Below, piece after piece: positions 23,103-53,200 of a DNA stretch of 55,607 nucleotides. The position numbers were made by a program, and so were the translations under genes. This stretch comes from Acidimicrobiales bacterium (lineage in GTDB: Bacteria; Actinomycetota; Acidimicrobiia; Acidimicrobiales; SHLQ01), in the NCBI GenBank assembly GCA_051011575.1, contig JBPCTR010000248.1:1-55607 (forward strand), read 5' to 3'. The notes under the pieces were generated by a model that had not been told where the DNA came from, made no database searches, and was given only the letters and a program-made list of their open reading frames with translations. Numbering within the stretch: position 1 is the stretch's first letter; every line of letters starts with the position of its first letter.

Positions 23103-23585
23103 ATGCCTCGCTCCAACGCCCACCCGCCCCGCTGGCTGACCCAAGCCGAGCAACGGGCGTGGTGGGCGTTGCTCGAGGTGGGAGCCGGCTTGTTCGACGT
23201 GGTCACCGCCGACCTGAAGGAATCGTGTGGCCTGACGCTCGAGGACTACGAAGTTCTCCATCTCCTCTCGATCGCCGATGAGCGATCGCTCCGCGTGGGG
23301 GCCCTGGCCGACCAGATGCTCACCAGCCGCACCCGCCTCACACAACGGCTGGATCGACTCGCCGAACGCGGCCTGCTCTCGAAGCAGAGGTGCCCCGAGG
23401 ATGGAAGAGCGGTGAATGTGGTGCTCTCGGATATCGGTTGGAAACTATTGGTCGAGATCGCCCCCGGGCACGTGGAGTCAGTGCGAACCAACGTATTCGA
23501 ACACCTGACCGACGACGACGTGGAAGCGATCGGCACGAGCCTCGACAAGCTGGCTCAACATCTCCATCGGACCCGGAATCCCTAA
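23103..23585 (+). CDS. MarR-family transcriptional regulator
   Basis: Winged-helix block LTLEDYEVLHLLSIADERSLRVGALADQMLTSRTRLTQRLDRLAERGLLSKQRCPEDGRAVNVVLSDIG. ATG 23103 lies 5 nt after the yceI-like stop. Confidence 0.85.
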   Translation: MPRSNAHPPRWLTQAEQRAWWALLEVGAGLFDVVTADLKESCGLTLEDYEVLHLLSIADERSLRVGALADQMLTSRTRLTQRLDRLAERGLLSKQRCPEDGRAVNVVLSDIGWKLLVEIAPGHVESVRTNVFEHLTDDDVEAIGTSLDKLAQHLHRTRNP

Positions 23586-32046: not shown

Positions 32047-33699
32047 TCAATAGGTCCCAGCCAGCCACCAACCCCCGCGCTCGACATGGGCGAGCATCGC
32101 CTCGCCGTCTTCATCGACAAGTTGGAACCGGGCTCGGCGACGAGTTCGGTCGGGATCCCACCAGCGTTCGTCGAGCAACCATGGGCCGGCCCAGGCCACG
32201 ATCTGTTTCCACCGGCGACCGTCGCGGCTGATCGTTGCCGGTTCCCCTGACACCTCTCCCCTACCACTCACCACGACGGACTGCCCGGAGCTGTCGAGCA
32301 CCTCGACAGGTTGTTCAGAGAAGAGTTCGACCGGCGACGGTGCCGGCATCTGCCCCGGCCACGGGCGTTCATCGATCGGCTGCACCTTTCGTTCGGCCAG
32401 GTCCACACTGCCCGCTGGCAGGAGGCCGATCGCATCGTCGGGTTCGCGGCCACCGCGCCACTCGGCAACCTGGACGTTCTCGCTACCCACCAACGCTTCG
32501 AGGCGTGCCACCGCCCGCCCGGCCCGCAGATCGGCTTCGGTCTCACCGCCCCAGAACCCAAGCTGCCTGCCCTTTGCCGGTAGCAGGTCGTCGGGGCGCA
32601 GCACCAGCAGGTTGAGACCACCCGACGGCCGCACGGCCGGCGAGGCGTTGAGCCAACCATCGAGCTGCCACCGGACTCGGTCGGTGAGTGCCCCTACCGA
32701 CAAGGCGCCCTCATGGCGCCAGCCCCGGGCGAGCCGTTCGCCGTGTTCGGTTTCGGCTTCGATCGTGACCCGGCTACAGGCCGCCCCCCTGGCCTCGAGT
32801 CGCCCATGGAGTGTGAGCGCGAGCTGGCGGGCAGCGAACGCGGCCTGATCGATTCGTTCGACCGGTGGGTCGAGCGAGAGGGTGGCGGTCATGTCCTCGG
32901 GCGGGTCGGTGGCATCGGGCAGGGATTCATCGAATCCCGATGCTCGAGCGTGTGCCACCAAACCCGGACGCGAGAAGCGGCCGATCACGTCGGTTCGTTC
33001 GAACGCGGCGAACTCACCGAGGGTGCGCACCCCCAGCCGCCACAGGACGTCGGTGAGATCGGGCATGTCGAGCAGGGTGATCGGCAGCGGCGCCAGGAAG
33101 CCGGGGCTCTCACCCACGGGCACGATGTGGGGAACGGGACTCGAGGTACGGGCGGCGATCCGACCGGCGAACACACCATCGGCGATTCCGATCGAACAGG
33201 TCGTGCGACCCGCGAGGGTGTCGGTGACCGCCTGTTGGATCTTCTCGGCAAGTGGGAGATCGCCACCGAAGTAACGCGACGGCCCGATTGTGGGGAACAG
33301 ACACGTCCCGGGTTGGGTGATCTCGATCCGAGGCGTGAAAGCCTCGACCGCCGCCACCACCTCCTCGAACAGACGGGCCTCGGTGGCGAGATCGCGCTCG
33401 GAGATCGTGAGTTCCGGGCAACGGCCCTGAGCCTCGCGGCGACGCAACCCGCGCACCACCCCCACCGACCGGGCGGCCTCCGACGATGCCACCACCCGAT
33501 TCGCATGCATCACGGCCCCGGGTTCCTCTGGCCGGATCCCCGCCGCCACCACCGGCCAATCAGAACACCAGAGGAGGAGGACGCGCGGTGGATCTGTGAA
33601 TGAGGCCTTGGGCGGAATCAGGCTGCGTTCGTGTTCGCCTGCTTCTGTGTCGAGGCGGGTGAAGGCAGGTTCAGGAAGATAACTCTTGCGGTGTTTCAC
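32047..33699 (-). CDS. imuB: ImuB, Y-family-polymerase-like mutasome subunit
   Basis: The 550-aa product begins with the typical LLLWCSDWPVVAA....A.RS.GV..GLRRREAQGRCPEL block. It lies directly downstream of the imuA'-like gene (GTGA overlap), with the SOS box upstream of the pair. Confidence 0.8.
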   Translation of the reverse strand: MKHRKSYLPEPAFTRLDTEAGEHERSLIPPKASFTDPPRVLLLWCSDWPVVAAGIRPEEPGAVMHANRVVASSEAARSVGVVRGLRRREAQGRCPELTISERDLATEARLFEEVVAAVEAFTPRIEITQPGTCLFPTIGPSRYFGGDLPLAEKIQQAVTDTLAGRTTCSIGIADGVFAGRIAARTSSPVPHIVPVGESPGFLAPLPITLLDMPDLTDVLWRLGVRTLGEFAAFERTDVIGRFSRPGLVAHARASGFDESLPDATDPPEDMTATLSLDPPVERIDQAAFAARQLALTLHGRLEARGAACSRVTIEAETEHGERLARGWRHEGALSVGALTDRVRWQLDGWLNASPAVRPSGGLNLLVLRPDDLLPAKGRQLGFWGGETEADLRAGRAVARLEALVGSENVQVAEWRGGREPDDAIGLLPAGSVDLAERKVQPIDERPWPGQMPAPSPVELFSEQPVEVLDSSGQSVVVSGRGEVSGEPATISRDGRRWKQIVAWAGPWLLDERWWDPDRTRRRARFQLVDEDGEAMLAHVERGGWWLAGTY

Positions 33700-34497: not shown

Positions 34498-37400
34498 ATG
34501 ACCGACCTCAGTGCCTTCGTTCCCCGCCTCGCGGCGGAGCTGGGTGCAACGCCGGATTCGCACTGGACCAGCGTTCCGGGATCGATGCTCAGCGCCGACA
34601 TCTCGGGGTTCACCGCTCTGTCGGAGAAGCTTGCCGGCAAGGGGAAGGCGGGCGCAGAGGAGATCACCGAGTTGATCAACACCTGCTTCACGGCGCTCAT
34701 CGACAGCGCGTACGACTACGGCGGCGAGGTACTCAAGTTCGGCGGCGACGCCCTCCTCGTGCTGTTCCGCGGCGACGACCACGAGCGCCGCGTTGTGAGT
34801 GCCGGCCAGGCCATGCAGCACGCCCTGCATTCGTCCCCCGCCGCCAAACGCGCCAACCTCACCATGACCGTCGGTGCGGCCGAGGGACCCTTCGACGTCT
34901 TCCTCGCTGGTTCCGACTACCGGGAACTGCTCATCACCGGCACCCGTGCCACCGAAGTGATCCACCTCGAGGGTGAGGCTGCGAAGGGGGAAACGCTCGT
35001 GAGTCCGACCCTCGCCGCCGTGCTCCCTCCCGACATGGTCGGGCGCACTCACGCTGGTGGCCATGAGGTGATCGGCCGGACCGACAATCAAATCACCGGG
35101 CCGCCCGATCGGGTGTCCGACGACCTCGACCTGAGTTCCTTCGTTCCTCCGGCTGTTTTAGAGCAATTCGTTGCCTTCGAGGAGATGGGCGGCGAGCATC
35201 GCCTGGTCACAGTCGGGTTCGCGATGGTTGCGGGGATCGCCGCCGAGATCGATCGGGTCGGTGCGGACGGCACGGCCGCGACCCTGGGCCGACTGGTCGA
35301 CGACATCATGGCCGCCACCGCACCGTTCGGGGTCACGGTTCTCCATACCGATATCGCTCCCGACGGTGTGAAGTTTGTCCTGTGCGCCGGCGCCCCCGTC
35401 AACCCTGGTGATACCGGCGACGCCCTGCTGGAGGCCGCGCTGCGGATCGCCGAGATCGACTCGCCTCTTGTGATTCGCCAGGGGGTGCAGACGGGTCGCG
35501 TGTTCGCGGGTTTCCTCGGTAGCCCCTACCGCCGCACGTACACACTCATGGGCGACCCGGTGAACACCGCGGCCCGCATGCTCGGCAAGGCCGACGACCG
35601 AGACATCGTGGCCGTCGACACCGTCGTGGACGACACTCGCACCATCTTCGCCACCGAGGAGCTCGAGCCGTTCCATGTGAAAGGCAAGACCGAGCCGATC
35701 GTGGCCCACAAGGTCTTCGCCAGCTCCGACGAGGTTCGCCGGCACGGCTCGGCCACCCGGTTGGTCGGCCGCAAGACCGAACTCGACTCGCTCACGCGGG
35801 CCATCGGCGAACTCGGCGAGGTGATTGTCCTCTCCGGCCCCGCCGGGGTCGGCAAGTCGCGCCTTCTCGACGCCGCATGGGACATGGCCGAGGGGCTCAC
35901 GATCTTCCAGGCCGCCTGCACGCCCTATGGGGCAAGCTCGCCATACAGCGTGTTCCGACCACTCCTCCGGAGCGGCAGTGGCATCGACGTACACGCCGAT
36001 CCCGACCACGCCGGCGATCTCCTCACCAAGATCGTCCGCTCCTTCGCTCCAGCTCTCCGCCCGGTGCTTCCCCTACTCGCAATTCCTTTTGGGGCAAAGG
36101 TGTCGAGCACACCCGAGTTCGAGGCGATCGAGCCGAAGTTCCTCCGCGAACGGGTGCACGCTGCGGTGGTCGACTTCCTCGACGCGGTTCTCGACGGACC
36201 GGTGATGCTGGTGGTCGAGGATCTCCACTGGGTCGACGACGCGTCGGGCGACCTGGTATCGCACCTCGTGCGCGCGGCCGAGTCACGGCCGTGGGCCGCC
36301 ATCGTTACACGCCGTCCGGAGGGCGAATGGGTGCCGCCGGAATCGGCGCACCTCTCCGAGCTCGCCCTCGACCCGCTCGACGACGACGACATCCGCTCGC
36401 TTGCGATTCAGGTGTGCGCCCGGGCACTCACCGACCACGAGCTGGACGAGATCGCGGCTCGTGCAGCCGGCAACCCACTGTTCGCGATCGAGCTCACGGC
36501 CGCACTCGACGGGGGATCGGTCGACGCACTGCCGGACTCGATCGAGGGCATGATCGCCACTCGCATCGACAGTCTCGACCCCGCCGAGCGCCGACTCGTG
36601 CGACTCGCATCGGTGTTCGGGCAGACGTTCGCCGTCGCCGACTTCACCGCCGTGTTGACCGATGTGGCACCGGAGCTGACGTTCCGACCCAAGCCCATCG
36701 CCGACCTGCTCGAACCCGGACGCAACAAGACGATGCGGTTCACACACGCCCTCTACCGCGACGTTGCGTACGAGGGCCTTCCGTTCCGACGACGAACTCG
36801 ACTCCACGCCACCGTCGGCCGGAGCCTCGAGGACCGAGCCAAGGACCCAGACGCGATCGCGGGGCTGTTGTCTCTCCACTTCGCCGAAGCCCGGGTCCGC
36901 GAGAAGGCGTGGCACTACTCACTGATTGCCGGAGAACGTGCAGCCAGTACCGGCGCGAACATTGAGGCGGCGGCCACGTACCGACGCGCCCTCGACTCTG
37001 CGCCGCGATCCGTTGACCCGGGTGAGCGGGCGGAGGTCAGTGAGCGTCTCGGCGACGCCGCATGGAGTTCCGGCAAGTTCGAAGATGCGGTTCACGCCCT
37101 GCAGCGTGTTCGACGACTCTCCACCGACGAAGCAGTCGATCTGCGTGCGCGGCGGAAGATCGGAATGATCCGTGAGAACGAAGGCCGCCAGACCCAGGCG
37201 CTGTCCTGGTACACCCGCGCTCTACGCACGCTCGATGATCGACAGGTATCCCCAGAGGTCGAGGCCGAGCGCGGTCATCTCTTGATCGCAACGGCCGGTA
37301 TTCGACACCGCCAAGCGGACGATAAGACAGGCCTTGCATTGGCGGAGGAGGCCGAGCGAATCGCTCTGAGAATCGACGACGCCTCGGTTCTCGCATCTGC

Positions 37401-38220
37401 CCTCGATCGGCAGGTGCTGGCGAGGACGTTCCTCAAGCAGGACCTCGGCGGCCGGGGGGAAGCTGCGCTTGCCGCCTATCGCGCCCTCGGCAACTCGGCA
37501 GGCGAGGCACGGACTCTGAACAACATGGGGATCGCGAGCTACTTCGCAGGCGACTGGACCTCCACTGTCGACCTGTACGCGAGCGCTATCGAACGGAGCA
37601 CCGCAGCCGGTGATGTGCTCCTCGCCGGAATCGGCGCCGTCAACATGGCCGAGATCCTCGCGGATCAGGGTTACTGGGATCGTGCAATCGAAGCACTGGA
37701 TGATGTCGTTCGGAACTGGATGTCGACCGGCTATGGACCAGGCGTGGCAGTCGCTCTGTCGTTTCGAGGCACGGCGAGGTCTCGGCGTGGAGACGACGAC
37801 GCCGCGAGCGACCTCGAAGAATCACTCGATCGGGCAACGCAGATCGGCGCGAGCAGCCTCGTCGCCGGCGCCGTAGCTCGCCTTGCCGAGCATTCGCTGA
37901 TCGTCGACAACCTGGGCGACGCACAACGCTGGCTCGACCAGCTCGCCTCGATGCCCGAGGCGGCCGAAAGCGACCTGACTCGACGCCGACGGTTGTTCCA
38001 GGCGATCCTCGACAACCGGCGCTCGAACGAAGTGTCCGACGACCTGATCGAACTCGCCTACGACGGTGGAGACTTCGTGCAGGCGCTCGCCGAACACCTT
38101 CTCCACGGTGTGGCGCCCGAACTAGTCGCGCGCGACGAGCGCCTCGCCTCGCAGCTGGGCATCATCGCGTTCCCACCCTTCCCGGTCCACGCGGTCACGC
38201 CGACTGGGAGTGGCGGTTAG
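34498..38220 (+). CDS. Tandem class III nucleotidyl-cyclase-homology domains + AAA/P-loop NTPase + TPR-like helical repeats (STAND-like signalling protein, no DNA-binding domain seen)
   Basis: CHD1: MLSADISGFTALSEKL...GGEVLKFGGDALLVLF. CHD2: RQGVQTGRVFAGFLGSPYRRTYTLMGDPVNTAARM. Walker A GPAGVGKS lies at 35836-35859. The long C-terminal part is helical repeat sequence (YRRALD, ALSWYTRAL, YRALGN...). Confidence 0.85.
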   Translation: MTDLSAFVPRLAAELGATPDSHWTSVPGSMLSADISGFTALSEKLAGKGKAGAEEITELINTCFTALIDSAYDYGGEVLKFGGDALLVLFRGDDHERRVVSAGQAMQHALHSSPAAKRANLTMTVGAAEGPFDVFLAGSDYRELLITGTRATEVIHLEGEAAKGETLVSPTLAAVLPPDMVGRTHAGGHEVIGRTDNQITGPPDRVSDDLDLSSFVPPAVLEQFVAFEEMGGEHRLVTVGFAMVAGIAAEIDRVGADGTAATLGRLVDDIMAATAPFGVTVLHTDIAPDGVKFVLCAGAPVNPGDTGDALLEAALRIAEIDSPLVIRQGVQTGRVFAGFLGSPYRRTYTLMGDPVNTAARMLGKADDRDIVAVDTVVDDTRTIFATEELEPFHVKGKTEPIVAHKVFASSDEVRRHGSATRLVGRKTELDSLTRAIGELGEVIVLSGPAGVGKSRLLDAAWDMAEGLTIFQAACTPYGASSPYSVFRPLLRSGSGIDVHADPDHAGDLLTKIVRSFAPALRPVLPLLAIPFGAKVSSTPEFEAIEPKFLRERVHAAVVDFLDAVLDGPVMLVVEDLHWVDDASGDLVSHLVRAAESRPWAAIVTRRPEGEWVPPESAHLSELALDPLDDDDIRSLAIQVCARALTDHELDEIAARAAGNPLFAIELTAALDGGSVDALPDSIEGMIATRIDSLDPAERRLVRLASVFGQTFAVADFTAVLTDVAPELTFRPKPIADLLEPGRNKTMRFTHALYRDVAYEGLPFRRRTRLHATVGRSLEDRAKDPDAIAGLLSLHFAEARVREKAWHYSLIAGERAASTGANIEAAATYRRALDSAPRSVDPGERAEVSERLGDAAWSSGKFEDAVHALQRVRRLSTDEAVDLRARRKIGMIRENEGRQTQALSWYTRALRTLDDRQVSPEVEAERGHLLIATAGIRHRQADDKTGLALAEEAERIALRIDDASVLASALDRQVLARTFLKQDLGGRGEAALAAYRALGNSAGEARTLNNMGIASYFAGDWTSTVDLYASAIERSTAAGDVLLAGIGAVNMAEILADQGYWDRAIEALDDVVRNWMSTGYGPGVAVALSFRGTARSRRGDDDAASDLEESLDRATQIGASSLVAGAVARLAEHSLIVDNLGDAQRWLDQLASMPEAAESDLTRRRRLFQAILDNRRSNEVSDDLIELAYDGGDFVQALAEHLLHGVAPELVARDERLASQLGIIAFPPFPVHAVTPTGSGG

Positions 38221-41200
38221 GCCTTCTCCGCATCCTTGGCGGCATCCTCGAACTCGTCGAGAGCGTCTTCGACATCGGTCGCCAGCAGGATCACGCCTTC
38301 CTGGAAGTGCTCGATCGCCTCGTCGATGTCATCGGGATCACCACCACGGGTCATCGCTGTATTGATCGCCTCGAATGCGAGGTTGCGCCCGAGGTTGCCA
38401 AGCGTGTTCAGGAGGTCGTCGCCGACCGCTTGCGGCAGGCCTTTGTCGAGTGCGTCGTCGACCTCCTTGGCCGCCTTCTTCAGGTCCTTGATCGCCTGGG
38501 AGATCTCGATCGGCGTCTTCTCGAGATGCACGACCGCCTTGTTGACGTTCTCGAGCGTCTTCTCGAGTTCTTTCCGAATCTTGTTGTCTGGCTCGTTCGC
38601 GATGAGGTCGTTGATCTGGTCGACGAGGAATCCGAGACCGCCGACCACCTCGTAGCTACCGACCGCACTCGCAACATTGCCCAGTGCGTCGGTGCCCGTC
38701 ACCGTGATGGTGAAGGCGCCGACCGAAGTTGTCGGGAGCAGGTCCCCACTCTCGAGAGTGAGGCCCCCGACGACGGCCGAGCATGATGCACCCGCGGGAT
38801 CCTGACAGCTGAAGATCGCAGCGACTTCCTGCCCTTGCGCGTACACCGAGCCGACCTGCGGTTGGATCAACGTCACTGCGGGAGCGAGGGTGTCAATCGT
38901 GACGATCTCGATCGCCGTCTGACCATCGGCCACCACGAACTCGACAGTGTGGATGCCGTCACCGGCAACGGCGACTCCCGCAGGCGTCAGCTCCTCGAGC
39001 GGCGCTCCGTCGAGACTGAACTGGATCGGCAGACCATCTGCGTCGGCGGTCACGGTGACCGGGCCCGTGTAGAAGCCGTTTATCGGATCGCCCCCTACCG
39101 ACGCGGTCACCGCCGTCGTGAGGGAGACGGGCGGCGGCGGTGCGACCTCGTCGCTGAAGTTCTCGGCCTTGTTCGTCGACACGCCCACGTTCCCGGCGTT
39201 GTCCTTGGCCTGAACCAGGAACTCCATGTTCGTGGGCACGGTCGGGAACGTCACCGCGCCAACCCAGCGTCCGCTGGCCGGCGGTGACTCGATGAGATCG
39301 ATTCCGAACCACTCGGCCGTCACATCTCCGGCGCTCGGTGTGGCGAGCACGTACACGCGGTCGACCCCGGATCCGCCGTGGTCATCGACCTCGGCGGTGA
39401 TGGTGAGCTGCGCTCCGTCGAGGACCGAATCGACCCTGAGAATCGCGGGCGCCGACCGGTCGGCATCATTCGAGTAGTAGACGATCACGTCGATGTCGTC
39501 GTCGAGCCGCTGAACGCCGGCGTCTTCGGTGCCCCGGTACTGGCCGGTTGCAAGCACGAGGTTCTGACGCTGACCCTCCGGTTTCTCGAATGTGGAGATC
39601 CGCTGGGGAACGGTGGGGTAGTTGATGTTGTCGAGGTCGGGCTCGGGCGCCTGGCTCGACTCGTCGAAGACCGGAACGGCCACCACCGGATCGATCCCCA
39701 CGTAGCTCGAGGTCATGTCGAGGATGATCGCCCCTCGGGCCTCGGTTTCGATCTGCGTCGTGTCCAGCGCAAGCACGTCGGTCACGTCGAGCGTGAGCGA
39801 CGGCTGGATAGGCCGACCCGGCTGCGTGATCGTGCTCGGGTCGCCCGCGTCGTTCAGGTTCGAGTAATAGAGCTCGGTCCCGACCGGATTCGGAATGTTG
39901 TCGGCGTCGGCCATGAAGACCACCGCACCCTCCCCGGTCAGTGGATCGATGAAGGGCTCGTTGTCGGGAGCCTCCGGGGCGGGCTGGGCGGGCACGCCCA
40001 CACGGAAGAAGGGCAGGCCGTAGAGCGTGCTCTCCTGGATCGCCTTCTCGTGGTACACACTCACGTCGACGAGCTCGGAATAGGCCTCCTGCTTCGCGAA
40101 CTGCATCGCCTGTCCGATCGTGGTGATGTCGTTCGGATCGAGGGCATCGACGTTGATCGGATTGACCAGGTTCCGGGCGAACAGCTGGAGCAGCCGCTCG
40201 GTGTAGCCGACGGTCTCGGTATCGCCGTAGCCGAAGCCGGTGTTTCCGACGTATACCGCTTGCTGATCGATGAACGCCTCAGCCCAATCGTCGAGGACGC
40301 CGGTGAGACCGGTCGACGTGTTGGGCACGTTCAGACCAGAGTGACAACCCATCGAGAAGATGATCGACCCGTCGAGGAGACCGTCGGCCGCTGGCAGCGC
40401 ATCGATCTCACTCACTTCGAAGTTGTCGTTGAAGCCCGGCACCTGATCGCCCGCGGCCGGGAGCGCCCGGTAGTGGTCGAAGTGGGCATTGAAGGAGACG
40501 ATGTCGGGGCCGTTCGCGTCGCCGGCACCATCGGGGGTCAGGAGACGATCTCCGATGTCGGTGGCGGTCCATGCTCCGTCGCCATTGAGGTCGTCGATGC
40601 CGTCTTCGAGATCACGGTCGAGGTCGGCCGGAGCGATCGGACCAGTGAGCTCGTCGGCGATTGCCTCGGAGCCGTCGATCAGGAAGTCGTAGCCGGCTAC
40701 CAGACCGGTCTCGGCGGCGAGAATGCCGTCGAAGAGAATGAACTGGTCGATGTAGTCCTTGATCTGCTGCGGCTCCTCGAGCACGCGCCCGAGGGCGGCA
40801 TCCGGAAGGTAGATGAAGCGATCACCAAATGGCAGCGCCGCGGTCTCGCCGTAGGGATCGTCGGACAGGAACGTCGACGCCCAGAACGAGCTCGTGAAGG
40901 CGTTGCGACCCGTGAGATCGAAGCGGTAATCGAACTCGTTGGCGACCTCGGTGGCATCGGCGAGCCGAGCCATCGGTAGCAGATCATCGGAGCCGATCAG
41001 CACGATGTTCTCGATATCGCGGAGCGCCCGAATCGGATCGAGAACGTCGCTGATGATCTCGGAGACGATCGCGTTCGTCGTATTCGGATCGCAGGCGTCC
41101 TCAGCGTTGGCCGGGTTGTCGAGTGCCGCGTATGCAGCCCGCACGTCGGCGAAGCCATCGACCGGCACCACCACACCGGAGAGCCCCATCTGGCTGATTT

Positions 41201-44200
41201 CGGGGTCGGAATCCATCGCCGTCACGAGGTCGTTCAGAGAGTTGGTGACGAGCGAGCGCCCACCCGCGCCGTAGATCTGCTCGAAGCGTTGTTCGTTGAC
41301 CAGAATGACCGTGTTCAGATCGGCTGGAAGGGTGGCGAAGTTCGGAGCCACGCCGGCCGCCGCAGCGGGAAGCGCACCACGAGCCACACAGGCAGGTACC
41401 GCCTCCGCACCTTCGACCTGGATCTGGAGAACGGCCGGGTCCGGGCTCGTCACTCCGTCGTGGCCGTGCACCTGAATGATGTATCGGCCTGCCGGCAGGC
41501 GTTCGGCGATGATGGTCTCCTCGTCGAGGCTGCGGCTGTTCGACACCTCGACGAGAGCGAGGTCGTCGAACTCCTGATCGAGTCGACGGAACCCCTGATC
41601 GGGCACCGCTTCGGACTGATCGGCGTCGGGATCGAGCACCGGCACGATCGGATCGGCGTCGGATGTCTGGCTGAGAGCAGTCGACGACACCGGGGCTCCG
41701 AGATCGCTGTACAGAACGATGTCGAAGTCGGCCGGGAGACCGCTCAGGTTCACAGCGATCGAGTCGCCGTCGCCGATGTCGACGTGGAACAGATCGATGT
41801 CGGTGTCGGTCGAGATGTTCACGAGGTACACCGTGTCCTCGGCGGCGGGGATCCCAGGCGGAGTGTCGTTCGGCTCGAAGGCCTCGACGACCTCGAGAAT
41901 CGCCGAGGACTCCACGACGGCGGTCGTTCCGACGATGCGCGCGTCGCTGTTCACGAGGCTCGCGCCCACCGAGACCGAGGGCTGGATGTCGAAGTCGAGG
42001 TTGTAGGTCTGGCCCGGCGTCTGATCATCAACACCTGGCTCGACCCCGGTGAACGTCCAAACGAGTCGTCCGTCGACGAGCTCGGGCTCGAGGTCACCGC
42101 CGAGCGGCGCGGTCACGACGGCAGATCCCGGGACGTATCCAGCCCCTGCCGGAAGCTCGACGGCGACCGTGATCGTGCGGGTGCGCGTTCCGGTGAGCGC
42201 GAACTGGGCTTGCATCCCGATCGGCGGCATGACTCCGGGAATGTCCGCGGCATCGATGTTCTCGAATGCCACACCCCATGGCAGTGCGCCAGGCGGCAGC
42301 AGTCCGAGAAGCAGATCGCCGAGCGTGAAGCCGGCGAGTTCGTCAGCGGGCAGTGCATTGACCAGGTCGGCAACCGTGGCCGCCCCCCAGTCCGGGGACC
42401 CGAGCAGATCGGCGAGGAGCATGTTGCCCAGGCCGAGGTCCGGATCGTTGACCGCATCGCTGACCAGCCACGGTCCGTTCCCGTTGACATTCGAGAGCGC
42501 CGCAGTGACATCCCCCTGCGTGAGGTTCCCGATCTCGTTCAGCCGAATGAAGGCGAGGAAGACACCCAGGTCGCCGAGCTGCCCGCCGCTCAGCGTGAGC
42601 GCCGGGAGCAGTTCGGAGAACGTGACATCCCCGAACGACTCGAAGTCGGCCAGCGTCAATCCATTCGTCACGGCGTGCGCGTCGAGTATCACTTCGAGGT
42701 CGACCACGGGGTCGCCGGCCACATCGACCGCCAGTGCCAGGTCGAGCCATGTCACCGTGTCGAGACCGTCGCCGAGGTCTCCGAGGAGCGTCTGCGCGAA
42801 CAGTGGATGATCGACGGGAAGATCGCCGAGTGTGAGGTTGGCGAAGTTGGTGAGGTCGGCGATGGTGATCGAGTTCGCGATCGCCCATGCGGCGACCGCG
42901 CCATACAGGTCTTGCGCCGTATTCGTCGTGAGGTGTTCAGCAAGGTCGGGCAGACGGAAGTCGTCGGAGGCCGCGCCGAGGTCGGCGAGCACGGCGCCGG
43001 GCAGAATCGCTCCGGCGAGGAAGGCGTCGCGCAGCGTTGCGGTCTCACAATCGACGAGCGAGCAGTCGACGATGTTTCCGATCGCACCGAACGGAAGGTC
43101 GATCAGCTCGATCGCCCCGAAGGGACTTTCGGCCAGATCGATGGCGCCGAAGGGAATCTGATCAACCGTGATGGCACCGAACGGAATCGCACCAAACGGG
43201 AGTCCGTTGACGTCGATGGCGCCAAAGGGGATCGCACCGAACGGCAACTCCTCGAGCCCGATCGCTCCGAATGGAATCGCACCGAACGGGTTGGGGCCGA
43301 CCGCAACGTGGTCGACCTCGATCGCTCCGAAGGGGGATCCCTGGACGTCGATCGCACCGAAGGGGATTCCTCCGACCGTGCCATCGGTAGAAATCGCACC
43401 GAATGGCGTACCGGTCAGGTCGATGGCGCCGAACGGAATCGCCCCGAACGGGATCGCACCGAACGGCAGCTCCTCGACGCCGATGGCGCCGAACGGAATC
43501 GCACCGAACGGAATCGAGGTGTAGTCGATGGCGCCGAACGGAATCGCCCCGAACGGCACGCCCCGTACTCCGAGGTCGACGACCGTCGTCGAACCGACCG
43601 GTGTGGCCCCGGTGCAGTCGAGGCCGTACTCGGCCATCAGCGAACACCAGTCGGCCTCGATCTCGGCCGGACCCGTCCGATCGGCGTCGAGCGGAATCTG
43701 ATCGAGCGAGGTCTCGCCGAGCACGATCGCGCCGAACGGAATCGCCCCGAACGGAGCTCCGTTCACGTCGATCGCGCCGAACGGGATCGCACCAAACGGG
43801 ACCTGCTCGAACGCGATGCCATCGATGTCGATGGCCCCGAACGGAATCGCACCGAACGGAATCGACTCGAAGTCGATCGCCCCGAAGGGAATCGCACCGA
43901 ACGGCGTGCCGGCGAGCTCGATCGCACCAAACGGAATCGCACCAAACGGAGTGGAGGCGATCCCGAGCTCGCTCAGGTTGATGGCGCCGAACGGCGCCTC
44001 ATCGACGTCGATCGCACCGAACGGAATCGCACCGAACGGAATCGCACCAAAAGGCACGTCGGACAGTCCGACCGACATGACGGTCGCGGTCGGGTCGAGG
44101 GTGTTTCCGGCACCGCACGGCCGATCCGAGTCGGCGAGAATGGCACACCAGTCCTCGGCGATCTCGGCCGGCGCGAGCCGGTCGGCGTCGAGCGGAATGT

Positions 44201-47200
44201 CCGAGATCGGGATTCCGCCGAGCGCAATCGCCCCGAAGGGAATCGCGCCGAACGGCGTTCCGTTCACGTCGATCGCACCGAACGGAATTGCTCCTACGGC
44301 ACCCGCGAGGTCGGGGTCGCTGAATACGTCGCCCAGCGTGATGTTGACCAGCGGCAGATCGTCGTACTCGCCCGCCGGATCACTGTCGAGAATCGCCGCC
44401 CATCCACCGGGTTGATCGAGTCCGACGCTCAGAAGCGGCAGGGCCGAGAGAACGGGATCATTGGCAGCAATCGCTCCGAACGGCGTGGCGTCGAGCCTGA
44501 TCGCACCGAATGGCGACTCGGCCACCCCGGCCTCCTGCAGTCCGGTCGAGCCAACGCTGGTCGTGTTGCCGGCGTTGTCCTCGATCACCGTCGCGGCATC
44601 GGTCAGCTCGGAGACGGCGATGCCCGTACCGCCGCCGATCACGGAAGGCTGCGCGCCCGGCTGCAGGCCGAGCGTGAACGTGAGGCTCGGATCGTCGGGG
44701 ATCAGAACATCGGGGGTATCGAAAAAGTACACGCTGCCAGCGTTATTGCCGTTCGTGTTGTCTTCGAACGGCGCTCCGCCCAGGATCGAGTCAGGCGCGA
44801 GCGCGATCGACTCCCCGAGGAAGTCGCTGCCGACGCCATCGGACGCGGCCAACGTCGACACCAACGTCCACGCGTCGGGCGCGGTGCGGTCGTAGATCCG
44901 CAAATCACCAGCTCCGACGATTCCGCCTGGGTCGCCTCCGCTGACACCGACGCCGATGCGTTCGCCGACGATGTCGACCGACTGGCCGAACGAGTCGCCG
45001 TTGACGCCTGCGGGGTCGAGAATCTGTGCGACCTGGGTCCAGTCGGTTCCGGTCGCCGGTGCCTCGAACACATGCACCACACCGGTGGCCGTCAGATCTC
45101 CGTCTCGGCCTGCACCGACGACGGCGAGGTCGCCATCGAGGGCGACGGCAGCACCCACCGAACGCGTTGCCGGCGGTGTGACGACGAGGCGATCGATCTC
45201 ATCCCAGATCGACGCCAACTCGAAAATGTACGCCTCGCCCGGATCACCCACGCCCTCCCGGCCGGGAGACCCGATGAGAACGCGCCCACCGTCGACGTCA
45301 ATCGAGCCGCCGAACCAGCCTTCGGTACGCGGAACGCTCGGCTCGAGGGTCTGGTCGAGACTCCAGGTGGCACCCGAGCCGGTCCACACCTCGACGATGC
45401 CGGCATCGGCAAACCCACCTGATGGCTGGCCCAATCGCCCAGCGAAGAGGGTGTTGCCCTCGAGATCGAGAGCCCCGCCCTCACTCGGCGTGTTGATCGT
45501 CCCGACCTCGGTCCACACGTCGACCGTGACCTCCTCGAAGATCACGATCTTGGTGATGGTGCGAACGGCGATTCTCGAGCCGCTGATCGCGACCGAGGCG
45601 CCAAAGCGATCGTCGAGCACCGGTGTCGACGGAACGAGCTCCTGGAGCACGGTCCAGCCGTTGGTGAGGCCATCTCGGGTGAGCACCCATGCAGCACCGA
45701 AGTCGCCCGGGACCGAGGGGTCCCCGAGGGCACCCACGATGGCGCGGTCGCCATCGATGTCGATGTCGTGGCCGAAGCGAATGTCGGCATCATCGGGCGA
45801 GATGATCTTGCCCGCCACCAGCGGCGCGACGAGTTCGAATGTGTACACACCGCCGGCAAAGATGCCTTCGTTGTTGTGGTCGAACGGCGCACCGACGGCC
45901 AGATCGGTGCCCGAGAGACCCACGGCGGCCGCGAACGAATCGCCCATCTCGCGGTCGGATGCCGTGATCGACTGCTGCACGGTCCACGTCGAGCCGGTGC
46001 GCTCGAACACGTGGGCCTCGCCGGCAAACATGCCATCGACCGAGGCCCGAGGTGAGGCGATGACCGCCAGGTCACCGTCGAGGTCGACCGTCGTACCTAG
46101 CTGGTCGGCGAAGGGCTCGCCCAGCACGGTCAGCTCCTGCTCCGGGCCCCACTCCAGGCCATCGAAGGTGTAGACCCACGCCGCGTTTCCGCCGGGCTCG
46201 CCGATGAGCGCGGTCGATCCGGAGAGCTCGACGCCTCCGCCGCCGAACAGCTGACCGCCGACGCCGCTCTCGAGGGTCTGCGTCTGGTTCCAGGTCGTGC
46301 CGCTTCGTTCGAACACGCGCACGGTGCCCGTGTTGACGACACCGGGCGTTCCCTGGTCGCGGCTCGCAGTAGCCATGGCCACGTCGCCGTCGATCGCCAC
46401 GAATTGGCCGAACCAGGCGTCGGCGATGTCGCCCGGGAGATTCACGGTGTGCTCGACGTGTGAGCCGGAGACGATCAGGTCGTAAATGTGCACGTTGCCC
46501 ACGCCGACGCCGAGGATCGGGTCGCTGGCGATCAGCCGGTCGTTCACACCGTCGATGTCGACATCGAGTGCACGGTTCGCGCCCGTGAAGGAGATGTCGT
46601 TGACCAGGGTCCACGAGATGCCGTCGAAGTTGAAGATCCAGGTCGAGTTGTCCTGTTCGGTGACTGCAGCCCAGTCGCCGCCCACCGCGACCTCGATGCC
46701 GAAGTCGAAGTTGGGGCCACTGGGAATGTCGTCGCCGAACTCGTCGAACAGCACCCACTCGCCCGCAATCCTGCGGAACATGTACGCGTTGCCCGGCTCG
46801 CTCGCTGCGAAGTCCTCGGTGGCTCCGACGATCATCCACTCGCCGTCGATGTCGACCGACCCGCCGAACAGGCTGCCGTCGCCGGCGCGGCCGATGCCTG
46901 CGTCGTTGGCGACGAGCTTGCCGGGGGCCGAGTCGACCACAGTCGAGTACTCGTGCACCCCGCCGGCATCCACCCCTGCGGAGGTGTCGTCCTCGGCGGT
47001 GCCGACCATCACGGTGCCGTCCTCGCCGAGTGCAATTCCCGATCCCATGCCGTCGCCGGGCACTCCGGCTTCCCATTCGAACACGTCGCCGCCGACCCAG
47101 CCGTCGCTCACATCGAAGCTGAAGCCCTGTACCAGGCCGGCGCCGTTGCTTCCACCAGCAAACGAGCTCACGATCACCTGGCCGTCTTCGACGCGCGCCT

Positions 47201-50200
47201 TCGTACCGAAGTTGTCGCCGGGGCCGGTGATGGACGACAAGGCCTCGCCGTCGCTCCACGTGGTGCCGGTTCGGGTGTACACATAGGCCGCACCCGACGC
47301 CGCACCTGCGCTTCCGTCGAAGAATGCGGTGACGACTGCGAGGTCGCCGTCGACGGCAACCGAGTGGCCGTGAAGGTCGCTGGCGTCCTGGTCCGATCCG
47401 GGTTGCACGAGGGTCGCTTCGAATTCGACGGCGCTCGACTCGACCCGATACACGTGGGCCTGACCGACGTCGGCGGTCGGCCCGAAGTCGGCGCCCCGCT
47501 CCGACACGACCACGGTGTCGCCGTCGATGGCCACCGACCAGCCGTGCTGATTGCCAGAGTTGTCGGCCGGAGCGAGGGCTTCGCCGATGGTCACGAGGCT
47601 GTCGCCGAAGCTCGGGTTCTCGGTCACGGTGTAGCGATAGACCGCTGCGTCACCCGTACCGCCAGTGATCGACGGTGCGCCCACGGCCACGAGGTATGTC
47701 CCGTTACGGAACGCGGACGTGGTCTGCTCGACATCGACCGAGAAGCCGAACGATTCGTAGCCAACCGGTGCCGGAATCGACTCGGAGAGTACCCAGTCAT
47801 CGAGAATGAAGTCGTAGCGGAACAGGTGAACCGTGCCCATGGTTGCGCCGAACGGGTCCGGTGCGCCCACGGCGACCACCATGTTGCCGGCGTCGCCGTC
47901 GGCCTCTTGACGCGTACCGGAGATTGCCACGGAGACGCCGAACCATTCCCCCATCACCGGGCTCGGCGACGAGATCTCGGTCACGAACGTCCACTCCTCG
48001 GTGAACAGGTCGCGCTCGAACACGTATGCGCTTCCCTCGCCTCCGTTGCCGTTGCGCGCACCCACGACCATCCAGTTGTCGTGGATGTCGATGTCCTGAC
48101 CGAAGAAGTCACCGGCCGCGGCATCGGGCGCCTCGATGCGTCCGGGAACCGGCGCCACCGGGTCCGGGAGCTCGATGGCGTAGACCGCTCCAGAGTTCTC
48201 GCCCTGCTGGTCTTCAAAGTTGTGACCGACCGCAAGGGTCCCTGCCGATACCGCGAGATATCCGTCGTTGTCGTTGACGAAGGGCTCCTCCTGATCCGAC
48301 ACGGTGTCGACCTGGAGCGGCGTGGGCGGATTCGTCAGCAGGCTGAAGGAATGGTTGTCGCCACGGAAGGTCGAGGCGACGAGCACTCCCGCGTCGGCAT
48401 CGAGCTGCACGCCGAATCGCTGGTTGAGCGGCGTCGCACCGGTCTCGAGGGTTGCGGTCGGCACGGCTCCTGACGCCTCGTCGTACACGTACACCGCGCC
48501 CACGTTCGAGCTGGCGCCGTCGGCGCCGACGATGATCCAACCATCGGAGATCGCGACTTCGGTGCCGAAGTCGTCGTTGACCTCGGCCTCGTCGAGCGTC
48601 CGGTCGAACACGAACGGCGACAGGGCGTCGGGGCGTGTGAGCACGTCGACGTAGCCGGACTGACCGGAAGCGCCGAGCGTGCCCGGAGCGCCGACGGCGA
48701 GGACGTTGCCCTCGAGGTGAACGCTTCCGCCGAAAAGGTCATCGCTGGCTGTCTTCGGCGCATTGGCCGAGATCGTTTGTGGCGTGTCGGTCGCCCACGA
48801 TGCGGCCCCTCCGTCGTAGACATCCACCTGACCGGCGCCGCCGTTGAAGGCGCCGACAACGAGAGAGTCGGCTTCGATGTCGAGATCCATCACGTCGGAC
48901 GGAACACCCGTGACGGTGGTCAGCTCGGCGAAAGGCGAGCCGAACCCTGGCCGTTCGAATACGCGCACGCTTCCGACGCGTCCGGCAGCGATCACATCGC
49001 CCTCGATCGACACCGAGCGGAGGCTGAAGGTGCCGTCGTCGATGCGCTGACTGAGCGTCCACTCGCCGAGCACTCGCTCGAACACATAGAGCGACCCGAT
49101 CTCGTTTGCCACTACTTCGCGAGCTCGTGCAACGACAACCATCGTGTCGCCGTCAACGTCGACGTTCTGGCCGAATCGGTTGTAGCTACCGCCGAACTCT
49201 GGCAGCACCTTTCCGGAAGGCGGACTTTGATCGGGGATGACGAACGTGGCCAGGTCTGTTCCTGCGGTGACAGGTCCGGTGGCCTCCAGAACCCACAGGA
49301 CGGTCCCGCCATCGCTCGCAACGTCGACATACTGGCCACTCGACACATCGACGCTGGCGAACACGCCGTCATTGCCGTTGTCGGAGAAGCTTTCGCCCTG
49401 TCCGATGCCCTGATCGTTCAACGACAGGAGGTCGCCAGCGAGTACGAGTTCCTGCCCGAAGCCGGTGGATATCCCCGCAAGGGTCGTCTGGCCGGTGGTC
49501 TGGTCCCAGATCGTGATGCCGACACTGCCGCCGAGTTTGATCGCCGCGCGTAGGTCATCGCCGTCGACCGCCCAACCGAACAAGCCGTTGTTCTGGGGGG
49601 CAGACGCCTCGATGGTGTTGCTCGGAACACCGGTGATGGTGCGGTAGCGGTAGACGTTGCCATTGTCGGTGAAGCCGCTCGAGTCTGCATACGGGGCACC
49701 GATCCACCAGTCGCTGACCGAGCGCGACACGCTGAAACCGAACTGGTCGCCGGCCGCAAACCCGTCGACACGCTCCTCCTGAGGGAAGCTGAAACGGTAG
49801 GTGTGTATCGAGCCCGAGTCGACGCCGTTGGCATCGGCGAGCGGCGCGCCCACGATCGCGAACGGATAGCTGATACCGACCGAGGAGCCATAGCGGCTGT
49901 TTGGATCGCCATTCCTCGTAGCTCGCAGCACGAACTGACCGGTCGCGTCCCGGCGGAAATGCTGTACCTCGTCGGCGCCCGGGGCACCGATGGTCAGGCC
50001 TGGCATGTCCATGGCAACCGCGGCGCCGAACTGAGTGCTGGCCGTGCCTGCGATGGTCTGCACATCGGTCCACGTCCCGGCGATGTTCCGCATGATGTAC
50101 ACGACGTCGTCATCGGGCACGCCTATTGCTGCCCAATCGCCGCTGATGGCTCCCGATGGGAACACGGGAGTCGAGACCGGCGCGCTCGCCGAATACCAAT

Positions 50201-53200
50201 AAACCGATCCGGCGTCGACGTTGTTGATGTTGTCGTCGCGTCGGGAACCGACAAGCACGTTCTCATCCGAGAGGCCGACGGCGTGGCCGAACTGGTCGCC
50301 ACCGGCGCCATCGGCCGCACGGAAGGTCTCGTCCTGAGTCCAGGTTCCGGCCACGTTGTCGAATGCGTACGCGGCGCCATTGCGCGTGGACACGCCGGTC
50401 TCTTGGGCGCCGGCGGCACCGATCAGCGCGATGCCGCCGCTGAGCTCGACATCGATTCCGAGACCGTTCGAGGTGTTGGCGTCGCTTGCGACGAGCTTCT
50501 CCGGGGTGCCCCAGCTCGAAGCGGACGATCCCTCGTACACCCACGCGGCGCCCGAATCAGGCGAGAGCGCGTTGTCATTGTCCTCGAACGCGTGGCCGAC
50601 GAGCAGGGTGAGTCCCTCGAGGTCCACCGCCGAACCGAACCAGCCGTCTCCGGTCGTGGCTGCGTCGGGGTTGGTGAGCGTGGTCGCCGTCGACCATGTG
50701 CCTTCGATTCGCTCGAACACGTGGACGGCGCCGGGTGTGATCGTGACATCGTCATTGGCGGTGACGACGGCGATGTCGCCATCGATTGCCACGGCGAACC
50801 CGAAGTCGGGGTCGGGCACCGATGGACCGACCGTTTGGTCGACCACCCAGTTGGAGCCATTCGAAAAGAGCGTGTCCGCCGTGCCGGCCCGGCCGGCGAT
50901 GATCTCCGACCCCAGCATCGCGACCGACCGGTACGGTCCCGCGATCGTCGAGTTCAGAACGAATGGAGAACCCTCACTCGGGCGCTCGTACACGACCAGG
51001 TCACCGCCGTTGGCGATTGCGGCGAAGACGTTCCCCTCGATCGCCACCCCGTGGGTCGGGTGCGAGGCGAGCACGAGATTCTGAATTTCGATCGTCTGCG
51101 CGATCGTCCAGTCGCCTGTTCCGGGGCTTCGCTCGAGCACCCGGAATCGAGTCCACACGGGTCCGGGGAATCCAGGCTGGCTCACAATCGCCCAGTCGCC
51201 GTCGACATCGACAGCGGTGCCGAAGCGCTGGTGCCCATCGGTCGCGATCAGCTTGTTCGGGACCACCTCGGGAAGGGCTGCTCTGATCGAAAATTCGTCG
51301 ACCGTCACCTCGAGCGGGGCCGACGCAACGAGTCCGATGAGGTCACATCGGCCAGGCGGAGCGCACTGGACGAGCAGGTAGTCGTCGGCCGCGGTCGGCG
51401 TGTACGTATCGAGGGTGACATCGACCCGACCGAAGTTGAGGAACGACGATCCGGCGATGTCGACCCGTCCGTGGTTCGCGGTCGTCGTGGAGTCGCCGTC
51501 GATGACGAGCTCGAGGACACCCCCCGGATACGAGACGTTGCCCGAGTAGGTGAGAATCGCTCCCGGCGACACGACCACGCGTCCGGCCTCGCTCACGTCG
51601 GGTCCGATCGTGAAGTCGCCCGTCACCCCCAGAATCGATGTCGACGCGGTGTTGTAGCTGAGCGAAGCACCGATGCTGCTACCGGCCGTATCGGCAACGA
51701 GTATTCCGTTGTTCTGGATCGTTCCCGTTCCGTCGAAGGTCACCGGAGCGTCGAGGAAGACCGACGCAGGCGCTGCGCTGTCGATGATGATCGTGCCATT
51801 CAGAGTGACGTCGTCATTGAATGACACACCATCTTCCGGCGGGCCGACGGCGGTCGAGAACACGTTGAGGACGCCCTCGATCGCAGCGGGACCGTTGATG
51901 ACGATCCGTCCACCCAGATTGACATCGACGGTCGCCCCGGCACCGATGATCAACCTGTCGACCTCTTCCTGCGTGTCGACGTCGGCGCCGACGGGAACGA
52001 TGGCGGTGTCCGTCGGTCCGGGCACGAGCCCGGTGTCCCAGTTCGCAGGATCGGACCAGGCGGAATCGACAGCGCCGGTGAACACATGCGTGAGCGGCAC
52101 TGCGTTGAACGACACGGCCTTGCCGGTGTCGGCACCTGCCGCCGCACCTGGCGCACCGACGACAGCCGAGTTGCCATCGAACTCGATCGAGAAGCCGACG
52201 CCGTCGCCGACGACCGTTCCTGTGGGAATCAACTGGTCGACGGGCACGCCCGGCGAGGGTCCCACACCATCGGAGTCGTTGAAGCCGGTTCCGTCGACGT
52301 CGCGGAACAGCGCGGCTTGTCCCCCCGCTCCGGGTCGTCCGACGATCACGTTCCGGCCGACCATCGAGAGATAGCTGTTCGTGTCGAAGGCCCCGACGGC
52401 GGCGCCGAGTGTGCTGGTGGCCGTGTCCTCGATGAGATACGTCGTGGCGCCAAGTCTGACGATCAGATGAATCTGCAGGGGTGCGCCAACTCCCTGGTCG
52501 CCGATGCCGGCGACTGAGAGATGGCCGCGATCTGATGCGACTGCCGTTCCCACGCGATCGCCGGTGGCCCATGGCGCATTGAACTCCTGAACATGCGTGA
52601 AGCCGCTACCGGTGTCCTGGTAGACGTGCAGCCCGCCCGCGTCTGCACCGGCGAGATCGTCCCCGGGCACGCCCGCCCCGAGCACGAAGAGCCCGCTCGA
52701 GTCCTGGCTCACGGCGACCGAAAAACCGAGCTGGTCGCCTGCGGCAACCAATGGGGTTGAGATCGACGAGGTCGTCCAGCTGACGCCAAAAGTCGCCTCC
52801 CACAGCTCTCCCGCGTCGGCGGCGATGTTGTCGCTGAGCGGCGAGGAGACCACGAAGTTGTTGAGATCCTTCCACGCGACGCCGGCGCCGTACCGATCAC
52901 CAGCGCTGGACCCGCTCAGCGTGTTGCCGAGTTGCGTCCACGTCGCTGCGCCCGTTCGCTCGAATACATATGCCTCACCGGGGGAACCGCCAGTTCCAGT
53001 GATGTCGGGGTTGCCGATCACGACCCGATCGCCGAGCAGGTCGAGGCCGAAGCCGAATTCACCGTTGGCGAACGCTGATCCGACCGGTGCGACGATCACA
53101 CCGTCGGCGGTCCAGGGCGCGCCGGGACCCGTCCGTTCGTACATGTGGACACGACCGGCATCGGCGGCGGCATCGTCGTCTTGCAGAGCTGCGACTGCCA

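Follow-up and report, generated by a model that had tools for sequence, protein, structure and literature searches.

A PFGAI pentad array in a giant, probably secreted protein of an Acidimicrobiales bacterium is a local form of a widespread, uncurated repeat domain

The DNA analyzed here, referred to as the window, is a stretch of 55,607 nucleotides on contig JBPCTR010000248.1 of an Acidimicrobiales bacterium (GenBank assembly GCA_051011575.1) with a G+C content of 65%. Its minus strand carries a giant open reading frame (ORF) of 5704 amino acids (aa) at 38217..55331, which matches the NCBI entry MGI9607629.1, a 'hypothetical protein [Acidimicrobiales bacterium]' annotated from M37. Within this ORF, translation of the segment 43080-44513 on the minus strand gave 478 codons with zero stops and a dense array of the pentapeptide PFGAI. 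The initial annotation of the window, made from the letters of the DNA, had estimated about 38 exact units in 478 aa, and this was borne out by an exact count of 38, all at aa 3607-4084 and none elsewhere in the 5704-aa protein. The same annotation had described a strictly in-phase, non-canonical pentapeptide repeat and, possibly, an Rfr-type beta-helix stalk. As our analyses show, PFGAI is a local, lineage-specific form of a widespread and uncurated repeat domain with hundreds of members.

Spacings between successive PFGAI units were 5 (15 times), 10 (15 times), 15 (three times) and 14 residues (once), with one spacing each of 61, 62 and 66. An automated count hence shows that the five-residue phase is kept within blocks, with 33 of 37 spacings divisible by 5, whereas "strictly in-phase" proved too strong for the array as a whole in view of three long linkers and one slip. 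This slip, by a single residue, is the only one inside the array and falls on the STDGTVGGI site, which had correctly been named as an occasional break. What that description did not capture is the division of the array into four blocks of 2, 3, 14 and 19 exact PFGAI units, between which lie non-repeat modules of 56–61 aa where the phase is broken. The dominant super-unit spans 15 residues, PFGAI-PFGAI-xxxxx, and in-phase runs comprise 22 consecutive pentads at aa 3760-3869 and 11 and 19 pentads in the last block. The array is very acidic, with 59 Asp or Glu residues versus 5 Lys or Arg.

Read along the protein, block 1 (44469..44513, aa 3607-3621; like all parts of the giant ORF on the minus strand) reads PFGAI RLDAT PFGAI. 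A GGW-type module follows (44286..44468, aa 3622-3682; ...GGWAAILDSD...PLVNITLGDVF...), and relatives of the protein carry this module too (GGWxxLL...PLQxhTLxxV, with h for hydrophobic). Block 2, delimited by the spacing analysis (44226..44285, aa 3683-3702), and block 3, with 22 in-phase pentads and 14 exact PFGAI (43725..44054, aa 3760-3869), enclose the first of two homologous W-C...C modules, both about 56 aa long and containing a cysteine pair. In this first module (44055..44225, aa 3703-3759) the pair is Cys3729/Cys3739, conserved in the family alignment; in the second (43557..43724, aa 3870-3925) it is Cys3896/Cys3906, and here AlphaFold2 predicted a helix at AEIEADWCSLMAEY with a predicted local distance difference test (pLDDT) score of 61-83. 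Block 4 (43080..43556, aa 3926-4084) holds 19 exact PFGAI and the one-residue slip. It is followed by a conserved cap (42975..43079, aa 4085-4119), GNIVDC-SLVD-C ETATLRDAFLAGAILPGAVLADLG, with Cys4090/Cys4095 and an AlphaFold2 pLDDT of 86-97. The cap is of the VDCxxVDC type and runs GNIVDC-SLVD-C...TLRDAFLAGAIL...VLADL. Upstream of block 1 we found a conserved leader (44514..44696, aa 3546-3606, ...NAGNTTSVGSTGLQEAGVAES), which is kept in the two orthologues L006 and L011 described below.

The 38 identical PFGAI peptides are written in 21 DNA versions. Among these paralogous units the synonymous divergence dS is about 1.0 and thus saturated, while the nonsynonymous divergence dN is 0; therefore the uniformity of the peptide is kept by selection and not by recent slippage or gene conversion. 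From synonymous differences, the initial annotation had likewise argued for selection over recent slippage. Tandem Repeats Finder reported DNA arrays with periods of 15, 30, 45, 60 and 90, in which only 63–81% of positions match. Comparison with the orthologue L006 gave a dS of 0.85 and a dN of 0.041 for canonical units, i.e., a dN/dS of about 0.05, versus 0.43 at non-canonical array positions, 0.50 in the pre-array leader and 0.29 in the post-array region. By inference, lineage-specific variants of the unit must have been fixed by older turnover of the array.

When 185,579 species genomes were scanned with a DNA pattern for (PFGAI)2, true arrays occurred only in three other metagenome-assembled genomes (MAGs) of Acidimicrobiia. 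These orthologues contain 40 (L006), 29+4 (L011) and 17 (L009) PFGAI units. Eight other loci, in unrelated genomes, with 2-5 tandem PFGAI-coding 15-mers (L002, L003, L004, L005, L007, L008, L010 and L012) were rejected as simple DNA repeats in short or unrelated frames; L002 belongs to a Bifidobacterium MAG and L008 to an Abditibacterium MAG, and one of the eight adjoins a run of N. In the MAG MFD09964.bin.2.209 the orthologue shows a frame change inside its PFGAI array (L001 about 12112-12123, on the same contig as L011). It was called as three genes of 2314, 749 and 1822 aa, with an out-of-frame tail 'RCDSVRCD...'. The frame change may be genuine or may stem from misassembly of the repeats.

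The family to which the array belongs is much larger. An exhaustive HMMER search returned 638 cluster representatives at E≤1e-3, of which 187 also pass E≤1e-10 and 56 pass E≤1e-30; a few of the 638, e.g., P0019 and P0036, are low-complexity false positives. Members are mostly proteins of 1000-5600 aa. In contrast to these 638, a separate, word-indexed search gave one match with the array as query and three with the family alignment. It misses the family because repeat-rich queries saturate its candidate list, and its sole match to the array was a fragment of the orthologue that is split by the frameshift inside its array.

Each true member has its own uniform pentad, for example PLGSI, PLSSI, PLGAI, PVGSI, PLRSI, PISSL, PLHSI, PLKSI, PLDAI or PLGSF. 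We distinguished 63 dominant variants in 131 proteins, all of the form P-h-x-s-h (s, small), and the family consensus unit is P-[LIVF]-x-[AS]-[IVLF]. In 3559 canonical in-phase pentads, position 1 is Pro by definition, position 2 is Leu (68%), Ile (16%), Val (8%) or Phe (7%), position 3 is free (Gly, Ser, Arg, Thr, Ala, His, Asp), position 4 is Ser (56%) or Ala (35%), and position 5 is Ile (76%), followed by Val, Leu and Phe. The 1022 interspersed non-canonical pentads follow the consensus D-[LIV]-x-[GAS]-[TS], so that the usual super-unit of 15 residues reads D-h-x-G-(T/S), P-h-x-s-h, P-h-x-s-h. Relatives also share a cap, in which Cys-x(2-7)-Cys (mostly x4) is followed by TLGDA..AGAI...TLGDL; a strict regular expression finds this motif in 46 of 132 relatives, and it is also present in the consensus of 82 aligned sequences.

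A common architecture emerges in which array blocks alternating with GGW or W-C...C modules lead into the cap, then DUF11, PPC and a C25-like domain, after which relatives continue with Ig-like, PKD, RTX or dockerin domains. Their N-terminal modules vary (FG-GAP, L-type lectin, CSLREA). They are annotated as 'hypothetical' or after their flanking domains, and in neither the window nor 36 relatives is the array domain covered by a Pfam or NCBIfam model. The NCBIfam model penta_Alr5209 reached 21 bits in the relative P0012 against a cut-off of 125, and Pfam matches of HSV_VP16_C (21-25 bits) and Lamprin on the array were dismissed as chance or low-complexity hits. A literature search for PFGAI and six doubled variants retrieved nothing relevant. 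The initial annotation had not known PFGAI as a described repeat family, and we found no description of it in Pfam, NCBIfam or the literature.

The remainder of the host protein is consistent with an extracellular role. Its N-terminus is, as read by eye, a probable Sec signal peptide (aa 1-51, 55179..55331) with an Arg-rich n-region, the h-region LLAVVLVLVMTASVMSV and then ASLA|G; this is the sole long hydrophobic stretch of the protein. The NCBI start at M37 (5668 aa; window 55221-55331) leaves out the Arg-rich n-region and retains only half of the hydrophobic core, while the GTG start at 55331 yields a signal peptide of classical appearance. Only 15 cysteines occur in 5704 aa, mostly as close pairs. 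Such pairs (C-x5-9-C) are found outside the array as well, at aa 409/416 (window about 54084-54105), 1323/1329 and 5509/5517, pointing to disulfides that staple an extracellular protein locally along its whole length. The hydrophobic N-terminal segment, the close Cys pairs and the acidic array together support secretion. An LPxTG motif was not found in the giant protein.

From about aa 300 to 3540 (44712..54434) the protein is made up of FG-GAP repeats, which Pfam PF14312 recognizes in three segments with 91, 204 and 274 bits (cut-off 23; E 4e-26 to 4e-83) and which probably form multiple beta-propellers. On the other side of the array, about 1000 aa of the C-terminal part align to P0012 with E = 2e-137, spanning DUF11, a PPC-like domain and Peptidase_C25. 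The DUF11-like domain (about aa 4389-4467, 41931..42167) aligns to the DUF11/TIGR01451 match of P0012, and the segment gives no Pfam match of its own at E≤0.01. The PPC-like domain (about aa 4484-4640, 41412..41882; EPND...YIIQVHGHDG) likewise aligns to P0012, and the relative P0014 shows a weak PPC match. For the C25-like (clan CD) peptidase domain (about aa 4749-5090, 40062..41087), the aligned region of P0012 scores 29.5 bits with PF01364 (cut-off 23), while the host segment itself has no Pfam match at E≤0.01. By inspection, the motifs NAH(F/Y)DH and MGCHSG are kept between host and P0012; in the host they read NAHFDHY and SMGC(4996)HSG and may hold a putative catalytic dyad. The host C-terminal cassette is thus of the type found in gingipain-like (C25, clan CD) surface proteins with PPC, DUF11 and Ig-like domains, with the difference that its own C25-like domain lies below Pfam detection. 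We know of no described C25-family protein that carries this pentad array.

Directly behind the cap, the post-cap region (aa 4120-4380, 42192..42974) contains about 13 copies of h-T-L-x-D-L. This second, looser repeat (ATLRDA, AVLADL, LTLGDL, TLLGDL, FTLGDL...) spans window positions 42312-43040 (minus strand, aa 4098-4340) at 10–40 aa spacing and is conserved in relatives, and no Pfam family covers it. AlphaFold2 modeled its first copies as short helices with pLDDT above 90. A reading of the cap and post-cap segment as AxLxx pentads (VDCSL VDCET ATLRD AFLAG AILPG AVLAD) was discarded, as AlphaFold2 places helices there with pLDDT above 90.

Immediately downstream of the giant gene and convergent to it lies a gene for a protein of 1240 aa with adenylate/guanylate cyclase, AAA_16 and TPR domains (34498..38220, plus strand). 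A cyclase, AAA_16 and TPR neighbor of about 1240 aa also occurs at L001 (18536-21650, minus strand) and L013 (18673-22398, minus strand), and the arrays at the three cyclase-flanked loci differ (PFGAI, PFGAI and PISSL). The giant gene and the cyclase gene may form a functional pair or merely reflect synteny within Acidimicrobiia. An antisense ORF of 1377 aa (window 41289-45422, plus strand) covers the whole array; in all probability it is no gene and arose from the high G+C content and the repeat. Elsewhere in the window, a DnaE2-like second Pol III alpha subunit (23582-26971, minus strand) and an IMS-family, ImuB/DinB-like protein (32047-33699, minus strand) are encoded about 5 kb apart and may belong to an SOS mutagenesis cassette.

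Among known proteins, pentapeptide-repeat proteins (PRPs; PF00805 clan, e.g., MfpA, Qnr, Np275/276, Rfr23 and the designed beta1 proteins) come closest to the array. We built a profile from 36 family segments, each comprising the last linker, last block and cap, and searched it against all PDB sequences with HMMER. Matches were almost exclusively PRPs: designed beta1 PRPs (best 4yfo, E 2e-11), Np275/276 (2j8k, E 1.8e-5), All3740 (3du1, E 7e-5), Rfr23 (2o6w, E 3e-4), DotG (E 1e-3), MfpA (E 4.5e-3), Alr5209 (E 0.017) and Qnr (E 0.05). PRPs are also the only solved proteins that the profile found at good E-values. In the alignments, Pro falls on Asp/Asn, Leu/Phe on the central Leu/Phe and Ile on Ala. 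With identical scoring against the family profile, a PRP fragment obtained 30 bits, a DotG-like sequence 11, idealized leucine-rich repeats (LRRs) 1-2 and elastin below 0. Both PRPs and the array consist of long runs of pentads in phase, with a central Leu/Phe, a second inward-type position two residues earlier and small or polar residues after; in the variable units of the array, Asp often precedes the central residue. We regard this similarity as a resemblance of pattern and not as demonstrated homology. IcmE/DotG of the Legionella Dot/Icm system, with pentad-based repeats (aGFsA, xELKx) in a large envelope-spanning protein, gave the top PDB match when the window array was searched as a single sequence (E 0.024); in contrast to the array, its repeats are 10-mers that contain charged residues and lack Pro, in an unrelated domain context.

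Structure prediction gave a partial picture. With an alignment of 36 sequences, AlphaFold2 reached a pLDDT of 86-97 for the last six or so pentads, the cap and the following helices, and 61-83 for the linker module. In the confident part, each pentad is modeled as a bridge, a 3-residue turn and another bridge. The conserved cap, the linkers with paired Cys and the confidently modeled last pentads and cap hence support a folded domain. Family-wide, the commonest canonical run is two units, and the longest uninterrupted ones reach up to 22. The block between linker and cap varies between 55 and 272 aa, and in 29 of 41 proteins its length keeps the phase modulo 5. Phe never occupies both position 2 and position 5 of a pentad, small position-5 residues occur only with Phe at position 2, and side chain sizes at the two positions compensate weakly (r = −0.25), as a core shared by both side chains would predict.

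We thus propose, with about an even chance of being right, that the array is a folded, regular rod of the solenoid type, built on pentapeptide-repeat logic and serving as a variable-length spacer. The hydrophobic side chains of positions 2 and 5 would point into a common core, while Pro, together with the unconstrained position 3 and the small residue at position 4, would occupy the surface and tight turns. Small disulfide-containing insert modules would break the rod, and the conserved Cys-x4-Cys cap would close it. As an acidic and rigid spacer with a length adjustable in single-pentad steps, the array could separate N-terminal binding modules, which vary between proteins and here consist of about 3500 aa of FG-GAP propellers, from the conserved C-terminal cassette of DUF11, PPC, predicted C25-like cysteine peptidase and Ig-like domains in a giant protein presumably secreted via Sec.

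Several results weigh against this proposal or against its PRP component. The spacer role is argued solely from the position of the array and its length variability. With 2 sequences, AlphaFold2 gave a pLDDT of 29 and no usable model; with 36 sequences, pLDDT was 33-57 over the array body, and a Foldseek search of this second model against the PDB returned no similar fold. In our experience, AlphaFold2 usually models PRPs well. Non-canonical units recur family-wide at a lag of 3 pentads in 250 cases versus 67 at lag 4, and block lengths in the 41 proteins show no preference modulo 15, 20 or 30. In a permutation control on PRP pentads, the true order scored 30.9 bits, the order A-x-N-L-x 30.7 and others up to 24. 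One alternative residue order thus scores as well as the true one, and therefore the HMMER E-values are too favorable and do not single out one register. A comparison with a PRP fragment in hhalign yielded about 0.5% probability. The Pfam pentapeptide models PF00805, PF13599 and PF13576 miss the window array even at E≤10, including the two families that the initial annotation had named for comparison, and in the 36 relatives PF00805 touches 2 (E≥0.11) and PF13599 touches 1 (E 0.13).

The broadest published PRP consensus reads (A/C/S/V/T/L/I)(D/N/S/K/E/I/R)(L/F)(S/T/R/E/Q/K/V/D)(G/D/E/N/R/Q/K) (PMC8145042). Against it, the majority unit I-P-F-G-A fits 2 of 5 positions, Ile at i-2 and Phe at i, with Pro, Gly and Ala outside, whereas variable units such as I-D-V-N-G do fit. 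Membership of the array in the PRPs is hence not established. The register first suggested, with Ile at i-2, Pro at i-1 and Phe at i, is the one that HMMER chose against solved PRPs, but the permutation control leaves it ambiguous. Against the suggested Rfr-type beta-helix stalk stand a pLDDT mostly below 50 over the array body, the lack of a Foldseek match, the hhalign probability of about 0.5% and a lag of 3 in place of 4.

In a stricter form of our proposal, the array would truly belong to the pentapeptide-repeat (Rfr) superfamily, with four pentads per coil, which we consider possible and rather doubtful. HMMER selects almost only solved PRPs in the register first suggested, and PRPs far outscore the other repeat types (30 bits versus 11 or less). 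The variable units of the I-D-V-N-G type would fit A(D/N)LXX, and Ile and Leu are listed at i-2 in the 2019 consensus. Inserted loops and a disulfide bracket have a precedent in Rfr23, and the length of the array varies freely by single pentads, which would be expected of a coil whose faces are all equivalent. Beyond the profile and Pfam results above, the super-period of 3 pentads and not 4 and the failure of AlphaFold2 and Foldseek to recover an Rfr fold from the array body stand against it. Moreover, the majority unit carries Pro for Asp/Asn, bulky Ile, Val, Leu or Phe for Ala, and Ala or Ser for Gly, Asp or Asn at i+2. By a rough estimate of volumes, the canonical Rfr core would be overfilled by about 40% if each 20-residue coil carried eight large side chains in place of four large ones and four Ala. 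The array is furthermore an internal domain of giant secreted multidomain proteins, in contrast to PRPs as small DNA-mimic proteins. The pentapeptide repeat thus remains the closest known kind, and the Rfr interpretation has a plausible logic but is unproven, and several defining features speak against it.

The volume estimate would accommodate a wider coil of about 30 residues, while a triangular 15-residue coil was ruled out by our estimate on packing grounds. Tentatively, we may speculate that the P-h-x-s-h domain is a solenoid class absent from the PDB and distinct from the 20-residue Rfr coil, for example with 15-residue half-coils that combine to a rectangular coil of about 30 residues. 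It could then act as a length-adjustable rod in hundreds of giant secreted proteins, and in each protein the pentad variant would co-evolve with a strand of the PPC/C25 cassette that matches it, through mutual docking or recognition.

Low pLDDT over the array body in both AlphaFold2 runs would also be expected for a flexible or elastomeric linker, either a beta-spiral or a disordered spring as in elastin (VPGVG) or flagelliform silk (GPGGX). Like elastin, flagelliform silk and lamprin, the array has one Pro per pentad, a long run of highly variable length and low prediction confidence; many of its pentads also contain Gly, and there are marginal Pfam Lamprin matches. We nevertheless consider this explanation unlikely. 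At a dN/dS of about 0.05, selection constrains all five residues of the unit, the two conserved bulky hydrophobic ones among them, which is unusually strict for a disordered linker. The five-residue phase is kept, disulfide caps and modules are conserved, and in the AlphaFold2 model the last pentads appear to pack confidently on the cap. Most variants (PLSSI, PLRSI...) also lack Gly, and the elastin-like control scored below 0 bits. Rauscher et al. in 2006 reportedly found that elastomers typically need a certain content of Pro and Gly, and most family variants lie below it.

Less probable still is that the 15-residue super-unit forms an ultra-short LRR-like coil. Where a variable unit follows a canonical one, and only there, the family consensus does yield h-x-x-h-D-h-x-x-(T/S)-P-h, which can be laid on LxxLxLxx(N/T/C)xL with a Thr/Ser ladder, and the lag-3 periodicity would fit a coil of 15 or 30 residues. 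Weak PDB matches to LRR proteins were seen (8z5u, E 0.068; VLR, E 0.33; 4eco, E 0.009), and Pfam LRR_1 touches 4 of 36 members at E≥0.007, with no LRR match of Pfam in the window array. LRR domains moreover have Cys-containing flanking caps as the array does; in LRR proteins these are known as LRRNT and LRRCT. Known LRRs, however, have periods of 20-30 residues, and by our estimate a 15-residue coil could not enclose five Leu/Ile plus Thr. Idealized LRRs scored only 1-2 bits with the family profile, hhalign gave a probability of 0.5%, and runs of identical canonical pentads up to 22 units long lack any Asn/Thr or Thr/Ser position.

The pentads could also be recognition or processing motifs, docked to or cleaved by the protein's own PPC/C25-like module and possibly released as identical hydrophobic pentapeptides. 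The array is almost always fused upstream of the C25-like peptidase cassette, with a uniform variant per protein, and an isolated pentad in the PPC domain copies the protein's own array variant exactly in 10 of 39 relatives, versus 0.9% by chance. We still rate this explanation as very improbable. No consistent cleavage logic is apparent, position 3 being Arg or Lys in some variants only, and the in-phase variable units, caps and disulfide modules resemble a folded domain. In the window protein, ALVEV and not PFGAI stands at the PPC site, and co-variation between array and PPC could stem from gene conversion out of the array. Accordingly, the copies at the PPC site could be due to gene conversion or to a functional coupling of the array with PPC/C25. 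The ten copies precede 'SANRG' (PLxSI-SANRG; P0012, P0026, P0059, P0099, P0105, P0108, P0118, P0125, P0127 and P0148); the equivalent window site is aa 4592-4601 (41529-41558, ALVEV-SNSRS).

Finally, a low-complexity, slippage or assembly artefact or a spurious ORF, as might be suspected from the Tandem Repeats Finder arrays of period 15-90, the long overlapping antisense ORF and the frameshift inside an orthologous array, is effectively refuted by 21 synonymous DNA versions with saturated dS between units, by orthologous arrays in three other Acidimicrobiia MAGs and hundreds of relatives, and by a frame continuous with the FG-GAP and C25-like domains.

Hundreds of very large secreted proteins of environmental bacteria thus share a domain that has no Pfam or NCBIfam entry, no annotated name and no solved or confidently predicted structure. 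If the array were a true PRP beta-helix, it would extend the sequence rules of this fold to Pro at i-1 and bulky residues at i-2, and it would represent an extracellular spacer and not a DNA mimic. If not, it would be a candidate for a solenoid geometry not seen before and a useful, difficult benchmark for structure prediction. The evolution of the family is unusual as well, with dozens of identical peptides per protein, unit DNA that is saturated with changes and at least 60 variants fixed across lineages. It hence offers a clean system for repeat homogeneity driven by selection rather than by conversion, and a family profile would allow a so far overlooked part of giant 'hypothetical' proteins to be annotated.

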